DNA of 64,000 nucleotides from the IMG/VR virus record IMGVR_UViG_3300036770_004485, one strand, 5' to 3'. This document shows positions 9,119 through 30,310 of the stretch, in pieces. The translations under genes and the position numbers were made by a program. This stretch comes from a virus. Below the pieces are notes generated by a model. It saw only the letters and a list, made by a program, of their open reading frames with translations. It did not search any database and had not been told where the DNA came from. The first letter of the stretch is position 1, and each line of letters begins with the position of its first letter.

Positions 9119-9300
9119 CAATACCACCTCATACTGTTCAGATATTCTAGCACATTCTGGCGAATATCCATCAATTCTGTATAGCATTTTTGATCATGAG
9201 CACATTGTCTCAGATCTTGATCTGGTTTCAGAACAGATTCCACAAACAAATCCAGTCCACGATTCCACTTTTCTTGTTTTGATTCATCATCGTTTGTCAT
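9118..9300 (-). CDS. Small conserved hypothetical protein
   Basis: 60 aa, coupled between gp43 and uvsX; [23 protein letters not shown] motif typical of cyanomyoviruses. Confidence 0.75.
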
Positions 9301-11792
9301 GAGAAGAAAGACTCCAAAGTTACAGTTTTTTCAACAGACCATCCAATAGCATCAAGAATTGTTTTTAGTGGTTCTAAAAATGCTTTTTCAAATTGAAGGT
9401 CATAATCAATGTATTGTTCTAGATCAAGTTCTTTTGGCCAATCTTGAATAAATGTCAAAACATTTTCATGGATTGGATTTGGTTTTTTCAAATAACAGAA
9501 CTTGATTTTTTCCCCATTTTGAATGAGAGAATATTTGTGTGTTAATTTTTTCTGTTTTATGTAGTAATTGAAAAGAAGTGCCCCACGAACATGAATAGGA
9601 GTTCCTTTTTCGTAAATTGAGTTTACTGATCTATACTTTTCAACATCAGAAACGGAACGAGGAAATGAAACTTCTTCTGGTTTGAGAGACTTGAATTCTT
9701 TTTTACACGTTGATACAAAATTAATTATATCATCTTCCGATCCATTCATCATAATTTTGAAAGAATCCTTTAGCATCTTTCGGCATGGTGCAGGAGTTGA
9801 TGATTTGACTGCTTCAATACCCATTACCTTTAGTTTCGGAGATTCATAACGAACTCCTTCGCTGTCCCAAACGTTGAGGATATAACGTTTCTTAGCAGTC
9901 CAGATTCCACGATCAGCAATGTTCTCTCGCTTCATCTGCATCTTTTGATCATATGCATTCACATATTCTGCCAGTTCTTTATAAGAACTTTCAATATATT
10001 TTTCAAGTTCCATTGCACAGATCTTATCAAGGAACGAAACAATGCTTTCAGTAGTTTTTTCTCTTCCCTGGTATACAGTTTTGACCAAAGGGCCCATATT
10101 GAGATAGATAGAATCAGTATCTGAAGCAATAACATAATCTTCACCCTCTGTTTTGAGAATATTATTTAAGTAGACATTCATTTTATTTTCAATCCACCTA
10201 ATTGATGCCTGACCAGAAAGTGTAATTGCTTCTGCATTTTCAAGTTTATAATATCGAAAATACTGATTACCAATTGCACCATAGGCAGAATTGAGTTGAA
10301 TCTTTCTTGCCATTTGAATGTTATTGCAACGAGCAATTTCTTTTTCAAGTTCTATCGTAGGAGTTTTTTCATACTGCTGTTTGGCAGCAATCATCTTCTT
10401 TTTGTAGATGGTACGATCTTCATAGATTTTTTCCATCAATTCTGGAAGAAATCCACGAAACTTTTTAGTATACATTGCACCATTGGCAGCAGTGGCATAC
10501 TTACCATCAGCAATAAAAGTCCCCGATAAGATTTTGTCCACAGAGCAACTTGGATGAGGAGTGTCCAAAAGAGTCTCTGGAGAAATGTTATATTGCATGA
10601 TGAGATGCGGATACAGACTATTCAAGTCAAAAGATACGACCCAATCATAACTACCTGGTTTAGGTTCTTTTACATATGCTCCTTCATACTTTTCATCCTT
10701 TGATGACTTTTTCTTTTGAGGAATGACAATGTTTCTTTTTTTGAGATAATTGTAGATAATAGAATCCCACATTCGGACTTGATAAAACACATCGGTAAAA
10801 TTTGCCTTTGCATCATATGCCATTGTAATAGCAAGTTCAATTAGTTTCATCTTGTCTTCCAAGCGGTCAACAAGTTCTACGTCAATAATGTTATACTCAA
10901 CAAACTTTTGCCAATTTCCTGTATAAAATTCTTTGAAGGTATCAAATTCAGAGTGATCAAGTTTTTTCTGACCAAGTTCAACCTCTGCAATATGATCTAG
11001 ACGATAAGATTCCTGGTTTGTATAAGTAAATTTCTTATACAAATCAAGATAATCCAGCTGAGTCACGCCACCAATATCCAAAGATTTGTGACAACGACCT
11101 TTGATGTATACTTCCTGTTCTGTGACAAGACCCCAAGGAGAAAGTCTTTTCATTCTTTTTTCGCCAAGAACACGTTTGAGACGACCACCAATGTATGGCA
11201 TATCAAATAACTGAATATTCCATCCAGTTATTACTTCTGGTGTCTGTTGTTCCCAATAAGAAATAAATTTTTCTAAAAGATCATGCTCATTGTTGCAGAC
11301 AATATATAAGAGATCTTTTCTTTGAGTCTTAAATGGTTTTACACCCCAAGTAATAATTTTCTTGGAGGCATAATCTTGTATTGTAATCGTAAGAAGTTCT
11401 TCGGAGCAAGTATTTACATCAGGAAATCCTTCCTCAGAAGTTGTTTCAATGTCAAGAGTTACAAGTTTGATTTTTGACATATCAAACTTGATTTCTTCTT
11501 CTGGATATTTTTCAGAAATATACTGATAAATGTAACGCTCATTGCCATAGATGTTGAACCCATCAACATCTTTATATTTTTCCAAAAACTCACGACAATC
11601 TTTGACATAACCTGGTTGAATAGGTTCTACAGTCTTACCATCTAAAGTTTTGTATTTTCCTTTTTCACTCTTTGAATCCACAAAAAGTGTTGGTTTGAAC
11701 TCATCTCTTAGAGAGAAATGTTCTCCATTATCATAACCACGAACGAGAAATTGATTCCCGACAAGTTGAACGTTAGTGTAAAATCGCATCAA
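9297..11792 (-). CDS. gp43: Family B DNA polymerase gp43
   Basis: ExoI LDIET; motif A FDLNSLYP; motif B KIQLNSAYG; motif C SDTDS; uninterrupted 831 aa. Confidence 0.98.
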   Translation of the reverse strand: MMRFYTNVQLVGNQFLVRGYDNGEHFSLRDEFKPTLFVDSKSEKGKYKTLDGKTVEPIQPGYVKDCREFLEKYKDVDGFNIYGNERYIYQYISEKYPEEEIKFDMSKIKLVTLDIETTSEEGFPDVNTCSEELLTITIQDYASKKIITWGVKPFKTQRKDLLYIVCNNEHDLLEKFISYWEQQTPEVITGWNIQLFDMPYIGGRLKRVLGEKRMKRLSPWGLVTEQEVYIKGRCHKSLDIGGVTQLDYLDLYKKFTYTNQESYRLDHIAEVELGQKKLDHSEFDTFKEFYTGNWQKFVEYNIIDVELVDRLEDKMKLIELAITMAYDAKANFTDVFYQVRMWDSIIYNYLKKRNIVIPQKKKSSKDEKYEGAYVKEPKPGSYDWVVSFDLNSLYPHLIMQYNISPETLLDTPHPSCSVDKILSGTFIADGKYATAANGAMYTKKFRGFLPELMEKIYEDRTIYKKKMIAAKQQYEKTPTIELEKEIARCNNIQMARKIQLNSAYGAIGNQYFRYYKLENAEAITLSGQASIRWIENKMNVYLNNILKTEGEDYVIASDTDSIYLNMGPLVKTVYQGREKTTESIVSFLDKICAMELEKYIESSYKELAEYVNAYDQKMQMKRENIADRGIWTAKKRYILNVWDSEGVRYESPKLKVMGIEAVKSSTPAPCRKMLKDSFKIMMNGSEDDIINFVSTCKKEFKSLKPEEVSFPRSVSDVEKYRSVNSIYEKGTPIHVRGALLFNYYIKQKKLTHKYSLIQNGEKIKFCYLKKPNPIHENVLTFIQDWPKELDLEQYIDYDLQFEKAFLEPLKTILDAIGWSVEKTVTLESFFS

Positions 11793-12049
11793 GAAATTAG
11801 AGACTTGTACTTTTCAAGGAGTTTGGTGTTGGGATCAACAATTGTCAAAATTTTATCTGAACTAATCATGAAGGTGTTTTGTACTGTGAAATCGATACAC
11901 CACGGTACAAGTTCGCCAGTTGATTGCACAATTACGTAGGGTTCTATAAGTTTGCAATCTGGTTCACCAAGTTCAGAACTAACTTCAATTAGTTGTGATA
12001 TCAGAATTGAATTGTTGGTCAGTAATAGAACTTTGATTTGTTTTTCCAT
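11789..12049 (-). CDS. Small beta-rich protein, putative Sm-like fold
   Basis: 86 aa; pattern shared with the 116-aa neighbour and with 28026..28421 (..P....PW....DKILTIVDP..LEKY). Confidence 0.7.
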   Translation of the reverse strand: MEKQIKVLLLTNNSILISQLIEVSSELGEPDCKLIEPYVIVQSTGELVPWCIDFTVQNTFMISSDKILTIVDPNTKLLEKYKSLIS

Positions 12050-12335
12050 TTTTTAATCCTTCTTTGTATTTTTCAACCACTTGGGGAATAGGGTCAACTA
12101 GGGTGATAATCCAATCTGGTGCTACTGGAATTTCTTTCTCTGCAGAAAGAGGAATCCATGGAGCAAAGACAATATCAATATTTTTGTTTGGAAAATATAT
12201 TGATTCTGGATCTAAAAAGCGAACTGTTGCAGGATTGCTGAACGTATATCCTACCACACGTTCGTTCATTAGAAGTTCTTTTACATCGGCAATTACATCT
12301 TCTCCCGACTTCAATACTGCAAGTTTAATGCTCAT
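11985..12335 (-). CDS. Small beta-rich protein, putative Sm-like fold
   Basis: 116 aa; VLKSGEDVIADV..NP..APWIP..DWIITLVDP..VEKY; perfect sigma70 promoter upstream. Confidence 0.75.
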   Translation of the reverse strand: MSIKLAVLKSGEDVIADVKELLMNERVVGYTFSNPATVRFLDPESIYFPNKNIDIVFAPWIPLSAEKEIPVAPDWIITLVDPIPQVVEKYKEGLKNGKTNQSSITDQQFNSDITTN

Positions 12336-12357: not shown

Positions 12358-12386
12358 ATTATAGCAATAAAAAAGGGAGGTGTCAA
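12358..12386 (-). promoter_or_regulatory. Perfect sigma70 promoter TTGACA-N17-TATAAT
   Basis: -35 at 12381-12386, -10 at 12358-12363; drives the Sm-like pair and gp43 operon. Confidence 0.9.
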
Positions 12387-12950: not shown

Positions 12951-12977
12951 AAAAAAAGACGGGTGGCGAAACCCGTC
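12951..12977 (-). terminator. Rho-independent terminator
   Basis: gacgggt-ggcgaa-acccgtc stem plus U7 tract. Confidence 0.85.
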
Positions 12978-13026
12978 CTTTAGTAGCGTATATTCCGTAT
13001 GTAGCGTGTCGCGCACGAAAGAGCGA
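12951..13026 (-). ncRNA. Candidate late small RNA (~76 nt)
   Basis: Bounded by TATAAATA (13032-13039) and a terminator; no ATG-led ORF; GUCGC/GCGAC hairpin; two ACGCUAC repeats. Confidence 0.55.
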
Positions 13027-26400: not shown

Positions 26401-27427
26401 ATGCTTCTTGATAGATATTTTTTATAATATCTTTTACGGCATTCTTATCTATATCAGTTTCGGATTCATCAAGGTATCGACTCAATATTGTAAGAGTGTC
26501 TTCTGATTGCTCTACTTCAAAATTTTCGTTTTCATTTATTGCAAAGTTTTCTACGATTTTGAGATCTGCAACACCAGAACTCATAACTTTGTCAATATAC
26601 TTTTCAAAATTCTTTGGATCTGTCTTTTTACGAACAATAATTTTTACAATTTTATTTTCAAAATCGGACACATTGAATGTTTGATAAGGAGTGTCATCAT
26701 AATACAATCTATAAAACATTCTAAAAGGATTATTGATTGGGGTCACTTCCAAAGTGTTTGTATCAAAGATATGAAATCCTCTGGTTTCCTCCAAATCACT
26801 CCAATAAATTTCATATGGATTGCCAAGATAATGAATATTATCATCACTACTTCTGTGATGATAATGTCCAGAAAATACTTTTTTGAATTTTTTATATGGA
26901 GATCTATCAGCACCATGTTCCATCAAATGAACTCTATTGGCATAAAAACCAGTAAGTTCCAAATGCCCCATAACAACTGGAGAAGTTGTTTTTTGTAAAG
27001 TTTTATATGTCAGTTCTTCATTCTCTTGATTAATCCAAGGCACAAAAAGAACATTCAATTTGTCCAATGTTACTTCTGTTGGTTTTGAATATACATTTAC
27101 ATTTTTATATTCTCTAAGTAGAAGATCAACCGCATTCACATCATTTGTGTTTTTATAATATGCCGTATGATTTCCAACGATAGTATGAACTGTGATACCC
27201 ATTTTTTCTAGAGTATCATAATAATTATCCTTTGCCCAAGCAAGAGCAGAAAAATCAATACCTTTACGACTATCAAAGGTATCACCCATATCAATAACTG
27301 TGGTGATACCTTCCCGTTTTATGGTAGGAAAGAATACTTCATTATAAAACTTCAAAAAGAAGTCATGAAACAATTTGGAATTTTTACGAGCACCAAAGTG
27401 TTGGTCAGTAATTACGGCAATTTTCAC
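26387..27427 (-). CDS. gp47: SbcD/Mre11-like recombination endonuclease subunit gp47
   Basis: ITDQHFG, DMGDTFD, VGNHT, GHLE, SGHYH phosphoesterase motifs. Confidence 0.96.
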   Translation of the reverse strand: MKIAVITDQHFGARKNSKLFHDFFLKFYNEVFFPTIKREGITTVIDMGDTFDSRKGIDFSALAWAKDNYYDTLEKMGITVHTIVGNHTAYYKNTNDVNAVDLLLREYKNVNVYSKPTEVTLDKLNVLFVPWINQENEELTYKTLQKTTSPVVMGHLELTGFYANRVHLMEHGADRSPYKKFKKVFSGHYHHRSSDDNIHYLGNPYEIYWSDLEETRGFHIFDTNTLEVTPINNPFRMFYRLYYDDTPYQTFNVSDFENKIVKIIVRKKTDPKNFEKYIDKVMSSGVADLKIVENFAINENENFEVEQSEDTLTILSRYLDESETDIDKNAVKDIIKNIYQEACEVF

Positions 27428-27921
27428 GAACGAAGTTTCAGCTGTACGTTGTCCTTGATGGAATTATAGTCGGAATAGTTGCTCCCGTCAAGTGTGTTGT
27501 TATCTACAAACACCTCATCGTATCCAGACCTTTCAAGAATCTTATTCTTGATTTCCAACTGCTTCTTTTCTCTTTGAATTCTTCTCAAAAAAGCGTAGTG
27601 AATAATTTGAGTAAAGTAAGCAAAAGGATTCTGCGATTTCTCTGGATTGAAATTATTGATATACTGTACACAATTTTCAATTCCATCACAAACCATGTCA
27701 TCCTTGAACATATAATTGACAAAGTTTGGTTTGTATGATAGATGAGTTGCAATTTTTAGAAAGCATTCCCCAATATAATTTGGAATACGTGGTTTTGGCA
27801 GACCCTGTTCTTGTGCCACAACGATTTCTTTTTTATATTCGATGATAGCCGCAAGAAATTCTTTATTGTTTACGTAATGCTCTGACCTCTTACGGGTTTT
27901 AGGCATGTTAGTTATTAGCAT
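27424..27921 (-). CDS. gp55: Late transcription sigma factor gp55
   Basis: HYVNNKEFL, YIGECFLKIA, NPFAYFTQIIHYAFLRRI. Confidence 0.95.
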   Translation of the reverse strand: MLITNMPKTRKRSEHYVNNKEFLAAIIEYKKEIVVAQEQGLPKPRIPNYIGECFLKIATHLSYKPNFVNYMFKDDMVCDGIENCVQYINNFNPEKSQNPFAYFTQIIHYAFLRRIQREKKQLEIKNKILERSGYDEVFVDNNTLDGSNYSDYNSIKDNVQLKLRS

Positions 27922-27950: not shown

Positions 27951-27978
27951 ATTATAGCACAAACAAAGGGCTTGACAA
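27951..27978 (-). promoter_or_regulatory. sigma70 promoter TTGTCA-N16-TATAAT for gp55
   Basis: -10 at 27951-27956 (TGc extension); -35 at 27973-27978. Confidence 0.7.
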
Positions 27979-28000
27979 GTCCCCAAAATGTGTGTAGACT
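27972..28000 (+). promoter_or_regulatory. Antisense sigma70 promoter TTGACA-N17-TAGACT
   Basis: -35 at 27972-27977, -10 at 27995-28000; points into the 3' end of the 131-aa gene. Confidence 0.55.
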
Positions 28001-28025: not shown

Positions 28026-28421
28026 TTATATTCTATAGAGTTTCTCTAAGATCTCTTTAGCTTCAATCACACTAGATATATATCCCATTTTACGATTTAG
28101 TGTTTCTTTGTTTGGAGTTGAACTATTTGATGAAGATTCACGGACGTATTGATGATAAACAGAGATTATTTCAATATTATTATTTTCAGTAATTGTTACA
28201 ACTCTGTTCATATCAATGATGAACAAATCTTCATCTGTAGTTTTTATCCAAGGTTCAACTTTCCAACCAACAGTCCCATATTTTTTTAATTTAATTTCTT
28301 CTACTATAATTGGATGAGAAAGTAGAAGCAAAGTCCTATCATCTTCATCACATACTGCAACTTTTGAAAAAAGTTCTTCACCAGTTATAAGTTTAATGGT
28401 TGCGTAAAAATCTTCTTCCAT
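28026..28421 (-). CDS. Small protein, putative Sm-like fold
   Basis: IKLITGEELFSKV..HP..EPWI..DLFIIDMNRVVTITE; resembles the pair upstream of gp43. Confidence 0.7.
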   Translation of the reverse strand: MEEDFYATIKLITGEELFSKVAVCDEDDRTLLLLSHPIIVEEIKLKKYGTVGWKVEPWIKTTDEDLFIIDMNRVVTITENNNIEIISVYHQYVRESSSNSSTPNKETLNRKMGYISSVIEAKEILEKLYRI

Positions 28422-28422
28422 G

Positions 28423-29886
28423 TTATTTTAGATTGACGGTGATGATTTCGTAGTTGAAGTTTTCCTCATTGTAAATTCTAATACGTTCTATCAAATGATT
28501 TAGAGTATAATTTTTTTTAGAATTATGAGTGCAATCATCTGCAATGTCAAAAAGAATTGCTTTTGTTTTATTATTGCCTTTACGCAAAACTCTTCCAATA
28601 CTTTGTAAATTACGAATTCTCGATTTACTAGGTGATGCAAATATTACATTATGAAGATTTTTAATGTTAATACCTGTGGAAAAAGTTCCATAACTAGCGA
28701 CAATAATTGCATTATCTTCTGACTCAGTAATGGTTCTAACTTCCTCACGTTCTTGAGCATCCACTCCACCATGTACGAAGAAAACCTTTCGACTTTCATT
28801 CGCCTTTTTGTTATTTATTTCCTTATAAAGGATCTCACCATGAGTTTCGACTCTACTGTATAATACGAGAGTGTTTCCTTTTAGATCTATTGCAAGATTT
28901 GTAATGAACTTATTTCTTTGTTCATGAGTAATTAAATATTGAATTTCGTCTTCATAGGTTTCAAATTTTTTTGGAGAATGTTTGAGTACAATGCAGTTGA
29001 TATCAAGTTTGGATAGGAATCCTTTCTCCATCAATTCTTCTGTACGAATAATCTTGTATGATGGACCGAATAATCCTTCCAATACCCATTTATGAGTTTG
29101 AGTTCCATCAAGTGTTCCAGTAAATCCAAACCTATACTTTGCAGTATGAAGTTTAGTCATGATTTGAATCAAAGACTTTGATTTGAAAAGATGTGCCTCA
29201 TCTCCAATTACAACATCGTATTTTTCAAACCACTTCCTTTCAAGTTTATAGATAGATTGCCACGTGGTAATAGTAATTGGACGATCATCAACCTTTTCAC
29301 GACCAGAATAGATTAGGTGACAATAAGATTCTGCATCCCAACCATAGTCCTGAAAGTCTTTATACATCTGTTCTACAAGACTGGTCGTTGGAACAACTAG
29401 AAGTATTCGTAAATTCCTTTCTGAATAGTATCTTACGATTGAATAAATCATCAACGATTTGCCTGAAGCAGTGGGAGATATCAATAGTCTTCTATTGTGC
29501 CGTAAAGCATCGTATACTCCCTCTACTTGATACTCTCTTGGAGAATGAGAGCAAATAGATTTCATATAATTTTCTACACCCTCCTTTGAAATGTCTTCAT
29601 TTACTTCAAAAGGAGTTCCAAAAAATTTATTGTCTACAAACTTATATTCGTATCCGTAACGTTTGCAAAAAGATATAAGTTTGTCTAGAAGTCCAACATA
29701 AATTTCGCCTGTTGCTGTAGAGAATAGGCGAATTTTTCCGTCCCAATATTTGTTTCTATATTGAGGCATAAATTTTGCACCTGGAACATCAAATGTAAAT
29801 TCATCCGATAGTTCTTGATAAACGTGAGGTTCTGCGTTTACTTTAAGATATACTTCATTTTTCTTTTCAATACTAATTTCAACCAT
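28423..29886 (-). CDS. uvsW: SF2 RNA-DNA/DNA-DNA helicase UvsW
   Basis: PTASGKS, GDEAH, GFTGT, LQSIGRVLR. Confidence 0.96.
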   Translation of the reverse strand: MVEISIEKKNEVYLKVNAEPHVYQELSDEFTFDVPGAKFMPQYRNKYWDGKIRLFSTATGEIYVGLLDKLISFCKRYGYEYKFVDNKFFGTPFEVNEDISKEGVENYMKSICSHSPREYQVEGVYDALRHNRRLLISPTASGKSLMIYSIVRYYSERNLRILLVVPTTSLVEQMYKDFQDYGWDAESYCHLIYSGREKVDDRPITITTWQSIYKLERKWFEKYDVVIGDEAHLFKSKSLIQIMTKLHTAKYRFGFTGTLDGTQTHKWVLEGLFGPSYKIIRTEELMEKGFLSKLDINCIVLKHSPKKFETYEDEIQYLITHEQRNKFITNLAIDLKGNTLVLYSRVETHGEILYKEINNKKANESRKVFFVHGGVDAQEREEVRTITESEDNAIIVASYGTFSTGINIKNLHNVIFASPSKSRIRNLQSIGRVLRKGNNKTKAILFDIADDCTHNSKKNYTLNHLIERIRIYNEENFNYEIITVNLK

Positions 29887-30310
29887 AACCTGCTACAAAT
29901 TTTTGCCACTCGATGGCATTCTTTATCTGATAAGTGCGATTACTTATCTGTTTGAGAATGCTCTCAATATAATTTAGCATTGTTTCATAATAGTCAATTT
30001 TGAGATTGATATTCATCAAAGATTCATCTGCATCCAGGTACTTTGTAAGAGTATCTTTATCTCGTATTTTTTTAGGAAATGGATTCTCTACATATACCTC
30101 TGGATCTGCCTTTCCAGAATAGTATTCATATCTGTCATGTCTAATATTTTTACGTTGCTGTTCTGCTTTTTTACGCAACAAAAGCACGCTATTGAATAGT
30201 TCATGATATTTTGCGTGTAAAGAAGGTATTTTTAGTGATTCTTCGTGCAAATTATCTTGATCAATCTGTGAGTCTTTTTCCCACATACTTTGTATAGTTT
30301 CAAGATTCAT
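29879..30310 (-). CDS. uvsY: Recombination mediator UvsY
   Basis: WEKDSQID..SLKIPSLHAKY; RTYQIKNAIEW; position before uvsW. Confidence 0.9.
   Translation of the reverse strand: MNLETIQSMWEKDSQIDQDNLHEESLKIPSLHAKYHELFNSVLLLRKKAEQQRKNIRHDRYEYYSGKADPEVYVENPFPKKIRDKDTLTKYLDADESLMNINLKIDYYETMLNYIESILKQISNRTYQIKNAIEWQKFVAGYG

Follow-up and report, generated by a model that had tools for sequence, protein, structure and literature searches.

Three predicted Sm-like paralogues beside replication genes of a T4-like cyanomyovirus

The window analyzed here is a 64,000-nucleotide (nt) stretch of viral DNA (IMG/VR record IMGVR_UViG_3300036770_004485) that is part of a T4-like cyanomyovirus, with its nearest isolates among the Synechococcus phages (e.g., S-SM2, ~74% identical in nucleotide sequence over hsp20-regA). 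Three small genes on its minus strand, which we call A (116 amino acids [aa], 11985..12335), B (86 aa, 11789..12049), and C (131 aa, 28026..28421), had been proposed in an earlier sequence-only reading to encode paralogues with an Sm/Hfq-like fold, and all three open reading frames (ORFs) are present on that strand at these coordinates. A and B are a tandem pair that overlaps and runs into gp43, the gene for the family B DNA polymerase, and C lies between the genes for the UvsW helicase and the late sigma factor gp55. We found that the three proteins belong to an already known family, that of the solved phage Sm-like protein 3BY7 and Pfam family PF16243 (Sm_like); they are thus new members of it and not a new system. 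What the present work adds is the fixed overlapping A-B unit, its conserved promoter and its junction with gp43, the fixed position of C, and the uniform acidity of the proteins.

The relationship among the three proteins is supported at several levels. A and B match DUF6561 (PF20198) in Pfam at 29.9 and 107.2 bits, respectively (cut-off, 27), B being archetypal for that family, and C matches PF16243 at 37.1 bits (cut-off, 29.4), together with a sub-threshold match to DUF6561. The best PHROGs are phrog_431 for A, phrog_483 for B, and phrog_471 for C (E values of 1e-28, 5e-25, and 4e-36), and each protein also matches the PHROGs of the others as well as phrog_527. Database searches returned 218 homologous proteins for the 116-aa family, 961 for the 86-aa family, and 893 for the 131-aa family, and many homologues of A match both Pfam models. 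When family alignments built from 50 (A; alignment A2), 45 (B; A3), and 47 (C; A4) homologues were compared with hhalign, the probabilities were 95% for A2-A3, 72% for A2-A4, and 31% for A3-A4, and the 116-aa family therefore serves as the bridge between the other two. In a profile scan of the 587 six-frame ORFs of the window, the best non-self matches of each family were the other two paralogues and nothing else, with E values of 1.7e-5 and 8e-4 for the A2 profile, 2.5e-4 and 4.6e-3 for A3, and merely 0.23 and 0.34 for A4. The same scan of all six frames found no fourth paralogue in the window; a 47-aa ORF at 30091-30231, marginal with all three profiles (E values of 0.7 to 4.6), is noise from an alternative frame within a 143-aa gene (29879-30310).

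Pairwise identity in a three-way alignment is low (28% and 19%). The motifs common to A, B, and C are PW, a D..I.T..P strand, and a tyrosine in the helix, all of which the sequence-only reading had picked out; the GE turn that it had also counted in the common pattern is missing in the 86-aa family, which has TNN at that place. The sequence profiles of all three families match 3BY7, with E values of 3.9e-7, 5.5e-4 (the 86-aa family, end to end), and 0.017. The N-terminal 77 residues of 3BY7 in turn have phrog_527 as their best PHROG, followed by phrog_431, phrog_483, and phrog_471, so that the four PHROGs and the two Pfam families make up a single superfamily. Profile similarity indicates that A, B, and C are homologous to one another and to 3BY7 and that DUF6561 belongs within the superfamily of Sm_like, although the databases keep PF16243, PF20198, and the PHROGs as separate families and label DUF6561 as of "unknown function."

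The Sm-like fold had been assigned by eye, and structure prediction bears it out. AlphaFold2 models were made for A and C, and B was assigned by whole-length profile similarity, that is, by its hhalign probability to the A family and its match to 3BY7. The model of A (predicted local distance difference test score [pLDDT], 81.8) has strands at residues 2-8, 13-23, 26-40, 55-59, 68-71, and 76-80, a helix at 84-101, and a disordered tail (99-116; pLDDT, <50). The model of C (pLDDT, 78.2) has helices at 83-100 and 118-130, the second of which is conserved and lies past a disordered linker. Six strand segments are predicted for the barrel in each model, and neither has an N-terminal helix; the first strand is at residues 2-8 in A and 5-11 in C, and the helix comes after the barrel. 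A Foldseek search of the PDB with the A model placed 3BY7 first (E value, 1.5e-6; template modeling [TM] score, 0.92), and the C model matched 3BY7 and the TIP60 cages first (E values, 1e-4 to 6e-4; TM score, up to 0.82). For both models, spliceosomal Sm, LSm, SmAP, and Hfq chains ranked after 3BY7 with a probability of ~1.0, so that the comparison with Hfq and LSm that the sequence-only reading had suggested returned Sm-like folds; a non-Sm fold was not observed. VIA-align superposed A on 3BY7 over 82 of 82 residues (Z score, 14.1; root mean square deviation [rmsd], 1.8 Å; 24% identity), and the matches below it were uniformly Sm, LSm, SmAP, Gemin6/7, and EDC3-LSm chains (Z scores, 6.5 to 7.7; rmsd, ~2 to 3 Å; 55 to 65 residues). 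A and C are thus predicted to be five-stranded, bent Sm-like beta-barrels with a C-terminal helix, of the 3BY7 type. We consider the family membership and Sm-like fold of the paralogues very probable.

3BY7 is a phage Sm-like protein from an ocean metagenome that was solved by the Joint Center for Structural Genomics (Das 2009, Proteins 75:296, as cited in 10.1101/140376 and PMC12152347). The idea of an Sm-like protein in these phages is not new, as the Sm-like fold and a suspected nucleic acid role of the 3BY7 family were already published in 2009, according to PMC3710371, 10.1101/140376, and PMC12152347. In these sources, 3BY7 is described as a pentamer (PMC3710371) that has no N-terminal helix and carries a C-terminal one (10.1101/140376 and PMC12152347, citing Das 2009). 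The 3BY7 entry itself consists of five chains, and it also supplies the pentamer module for the TIP60 cages (7EQ9, 7XM1, and 9UOL), designed assemblies of 60 chains that are built from it. Like the models of A and C, 3BY7 is an Sm-like barrel with no N-terminal helix and with a C-terminal helix, and it has the GE(D/E), PW, and D..I.T..P motifs in common with them. Differences are that its identity to the 116-aa model is only 21 to 24% when the structures are aligned, its best PHROG is 527 rather than 431, 483, or 471, its closest isolate relative is a pelagiphage and not a cyanophage, and it has been studied as a homopentamer, whereas the window genome has three paralogues, two of them co-expressed. 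The comparison with Hfq and the Sm/LSm rings is similarly mixed. The bent five-stranded barrel is common to these and the window proteins, and ring assembly is seen in 3BY7; in contrast, Hfq and Sm/LSm proteins have an N-terminal helix and an LSM or Hfq Pfam signature and form rings of six or seven subunits, whereas 3BY7 has five and the window proteins are strongly acidic.

The tandem arrangement of A and B upstream of gp43, which the sequence-only reading had described, turned out to be a fixed feature of related genomes. A B-type gene adjoins the A-type gene in 79 of 80 IMG/VR loci, and the 80th locus ends 31 nt past A. Across those 79 loci the two genes overlap by 29 to 77 nt, with B in the +1 frame in all but one (78/79). 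The overlap in the window is 65 nt (11985..12049, minus strand), and B starts in the +1 frame within the disordered tail of A. The purine-rich, Shine-Dalgarno-like stretch of B is encoded in codons of the C-terminal helix of A, and the frame of B has a stop one codon ahead of its ATG. Neither a programmed frameshift nor an A-B fusion is needed as an explanation: a B start placed directly after the conserved helix of A explains the kept frame, because an insertion or deletion there would break one of the genes. At the other end of the pair, the TGA stop of B (11791-11789) and the ATG of gp43 (11789-11787) have one base in common, as TGATG, and in most related loci the junction is TGATG or ATGA, leading into a protein that begins MRFY. 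The overlap of the B stop with the gp43 start suggests translational coupling. The ORF list lets gp43 (9297..11792, minus strand) begin with a TTG (11792), but it is the ATG at 11789-11787 that is conserved as the start.

The A-B pair is preceded on the minus strand by a sigma70-type promoter (12358..12386) that had been called perfect, and its TTGACA, 17-nt spacer, and TG-extended TATAAT indeed match the consensus at 12 of 12 positions. The promoter is conserved in position, with a TTGAC-like -35 element, mostly a 17-nt spacer, and a TG-extended -10 element that ends ~21 nt before the start codon. Upstream of the A orthologue, 56 of 69 distinct IMG/VR loci score at least 10 of 12. Conservation of a promoter of this type argues for early transcription by the host polymerase, and early expression of A and B may thus be expected from the promoter; the text of the P-HM2 transcriptome paper does not mention these genes with respect to the timing of expression. 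Farther upstream lie genes for HSP20, a 2OG-Fe(II) oxygenase, and RegA; gp43, hsp20, and regA had been named as neighbors, and the family B DNA polymerase, HSP20, and RegA were each found. The position of C is equally constant. UvsW (28423..29886, minus strand; Pfam UvsW_N, ResIII, and Helicase_C) stops directly before the C start, and it is directly upstream of C on the same strand in all 76 related loci with room for it; gp55 (27424..27921, minus strand; phrog_234, E value of 5e-71) lies ~100 nt downstream of C, as it does in 64 of 64 loci with room.

The explanation that we favor is that A, B, and C are 3BY7-type Sm-like rings, with A and B acting together and with a pore that binds single-stranded nucleic acid, and as a whole we give it about an even chance of being correct. 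By analogy, each protein would form a ring like that of 3BY7, and A and B, made from one early mRNA by means of an internal start, probably co-assemble or act together. Two turns carry motifs that are conserved superfamily-wide: GE(D/E), which lies between strands 1 and 2, and PW, which follows strand 4. In Sm rings, loops L2, L3, and L5 face the lumen (PMC3710371). The GE(D/E) and PW motifs are predicted to fall in loops L2 and L5, facing the ring pore, which would make the pore the likely working site and the conserved tryptophan available there for base stacking. The most likely ligand would be single-stranded nucleic acid, RNA in the first place, bound early in infection. From their strong acidity the proteins are expected to be sequence-selective pore binders or protectors, as LSm rings are at RNA 3' ends, and not annealing chaperones in the manner of Hfq. 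RNA binding as the function of these rings is a tentative proposal, somewhat short of an even chance.

Several observations weigh against this explanation. All three families are acidic, with median isoelectric points of 4.5 (A), 4.4 (B), and 4.9 (C) and net charges of -8, -6, and -6, and arginine is absent from the 86-aa protein. A Pfam hmmscan at an E value of up to 10 gave no LSM or Hfq family for A, B, or C, so one cannot take for granted that they have the canonical uridine-pocket residues. That the motifs lie in the pore is derived from secondary structure and textbook Sm topology and not from a ring model, and co-assembly of A and B is suggested by the gene arrangement alone; their universal adjacency and overlap fit it. 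The 3BY7 homopentamer forms by itself, and no fused two-domain A-B protein was found among 149 of the 150 best representatives, the long members of which merely carry acidic tails. No RNA or DNA binding is reported for any member of the family in the literature examined.

T4 encodes the early LSm-like-fold proteins GoF, MotB.1, and Frd.2, and, as background that would suit an RNA role, a mutant of one of them stabilizes an mRNA (Kim et al. 2025, PMC12152347). The wild-type GoF and MotB.1 proteins showed no RNA effect (PMC12152347), which also counts against RNA binding in the window set. Like the window proteins, those of T4 are small, phage-only proteins with a predicted five-stranded LSm-like barrel, and there are three per genome, with early expression known for T4 and suggested by the promoter for the window set. 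They differ in that tblastn of A and C at an E value of up to 1e-3 detected no sequence relation between the sets, and that the genome positions are not the same. Unlike 3BY7, a proven ring, the T4 proteins, which possess an additional C-terminal domain, could not be modeled confidently as multimers (PMC12152347).

A more elaborate version of the ring explanation holds that A and B form an obligate hetero-ring and that, together with C, this ring constitutes the cyanomyovirus's own Sm/LSm-type RNA-binding system, which early in infection would shield or gate the transcripts of the phage, the gp43 message among them. Eukaryotic Sm/LSm proteins are a precedent for paralogous subunits in hetero-rings. 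We regard this version as improbable. If it is true, a viral heteromeric Sm ring would be in hand, and to our knowledge heteromeric Sm rings have so far been found in eukaryotes only. If the proteins bind RNA at all, they would be a phage-encoded counterpart of Hfq and LSm in hosts that largely lack Hfq, which is missing in most Prochlorococcus hosts (10 of 12 strains; PMC2518516).

The alternative that survives best is that the rings are adaptors that bind proteins of the machinery for replication and recombination instead of RNA. They would attach to gp43, UvsW, or the clamp loader or regulate one of these, or they would mimic nucleic acid, with the barrel and the C-terminal helices and tails serving as docking elements. 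All copies adjoin a replication gene or lie near one: the A-B pair is found before gp43 and C follows UvsW in 76 of 76 loci, a fourth paralogue in Synechococcus phage ACG-2014b sits between gp44 and gp62, and a pelagiphage homologue lies two genes upstream of gp43. However, nearly all genes of the region abut or overlap their neighbors, so that tight junctions are not specific. The strong acidity of the proteins, the D/E/S-rich tails of longer A-family members, and the conserved C-terminal helix of C past its disordered linker would all suit docking, and the structure matches of the A model include the protein-binding Sm-like domains of EDC3 (LSm), Gemin6/7, and a NatC subunit. On the other hand, the most conserved motifs are predicted in the pore-facing loops, which are the RNA site of Sm rings, and the C-terminal part of C has no similarity to the UvsW.1-like end of T4 UvsW, as the hhalign probability of 1.6% leads us to reject its helix as the counterpart of that end. 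We consider an adaptor role possible but rather unlikely.

The tails just mentioned deserve a separate description. In the longer A-family members (P0387, P0405, P0416, P0441, P0474, and P0508), the disordered tail is lengthened into D/E/S-rich tracts of 50 to 90 residues. Similar acidic tails are found at the C termini of SSB, gp32, and Hfq, where they serve to dock partner proteins or to compete with nucleic acid.

The sequence-only reading had itself gone further than the fold and proposed a hetero-oligomeric ring that chaperones phage small or antisense RNAs or modulates host RNA decay. Such an Hfq-like chaperone, annealing the RNAs to their targets or redirecting decay and replacing the missing Hfq, is compatible with the Sm-like fold, with three paralogues per genome of which two are co-expressed, and with the lack of Hfq in 10 of 12 Prochlorococcus strains (PMC2518516). 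The proteins are nevertheless uniformly acidic, with no arginine in B, match no Hfq or LSM profile, and have no N-terminal helix, and C, 16 kb away from the pair, is invariably associated with uvsW and gp55. Annealing of the Hfq type relies on basic surfaces at the rim and face. The proximity of the pair to a candidate small RNA is weak evidence in a densely packed replication module, and a link between the paralogues and that RNA is unsupported: only its terminator was seen, and Rfam at gathering thresholds gave no match in the whole window, so that no known RNA family is tied to the Sm-like genes. We therefore view a role of this kind as possible but not favored, and quite unlikely. The terminator in question is a strong intrinsic-terminator-like hairpin on the minus strand (12954-12981); it has 11 pairs with a run of T after them and is located between hsp20 and the gene for the 2OG-Fe(II) oxygenase. 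Finally, that the three ORFs resemble one another by chance or through their composition, or that they are not expressed genes, is scarcely credible, for although pairwise identity is low (28% and 19%) and the A3-A4 comparison is weak by itself (31%), this reading is already refuted by curated Pfam thresholds passed, hundreds of conserved homologues, transitive profile links and a common solved relative that join all three, the same fold from two independent models, and conserved synteny and promoter.

At the level of distribution, 360 phage records matched A and 407 matched C in tblastn at an E value of up to 1e-3, every one of them from a Synechococcus or Prochlorococcus myovirus or a marine virus, and by tblastn of those two proteins A and C appear confined to cyanomyoviruses. 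The same three copies, no more and no fewer, occur in S-SM2. When 1.84 billion representatives were searched with a profile, 860 clusters matched at an E value of up to 1e-3, and the best 150 of these are almost all single-domain proteins of 73 to 203 aa. The genes are thus near-universal in marine cyanomyoviruses, where they lie within the core replication module and, in the case of the pair, under a strong early promoter. Marine cyanomyoviruses count among the ocean's most abundant viruses. Starting points for experiments are the placement of DUF6561 with Sm_like, the A-B pair as a fixed unit that usually runs into gp43, the uniform acidity, and a database label that we found to be unsupported. 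Orthologues of C are widely annotated as "methylamine utilization protein," and phrog_471 bears the same label; nothing was found in support of it, and it looks like a propagated legacy annotation. Our literature search found no mention of DUF6561, PF20198, or PF16243, nor of "methylamine utilization" together with cyanophage.

Outside the window, additional family members occur near replication genes. A fourth paralogue is present in some cyanomyoviruses, and that of Synechococcus phage ACG-2014b (NC_047719.1, 127094-127387) is a 3BY7-like protein of 97 aa, of which the window has no copy; its gene has a 4-nt overlap with the end of gp44 (clamp loader) and is followed by genes for a DNA methyltransferase and gp62. 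The isolate phage gene closest to 3BY7 is that of Pelagibacter phage Mosig EXVC030M (MT647606.1, 3027-3341; 41.6% identity; E value, 2e-14), compared with 37.5% identity and an E value of 4e-5 for the best cyanophage match, and one Sinorhizobium phage record likewise matched 3BY7. With a pelagiphage gene as the closest isolate relative of 3BY7, the "putative cyanophage origin" ascribed to it may really be a SAR11 T4-like phage. In Mosig EXVC030M, the gene between the Sm-like gene and gp43 was considered as a possible B-type paralogue and rejected; it encodes a true 2Fe-2S ferredoxin with the Cys motif and has no profile match. In the window, two further promoter-like sequences, both consensus matches only, lie between gp55 and C. 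The first (minus strand, 27978..27951; 11/12) is sigma70-like and would serve gp55, and the second, back-to-back with it, is a plus-strand TTGACA-17-TAGACT (27972..28000; 10/12) that points antisense into the 3' end of C.

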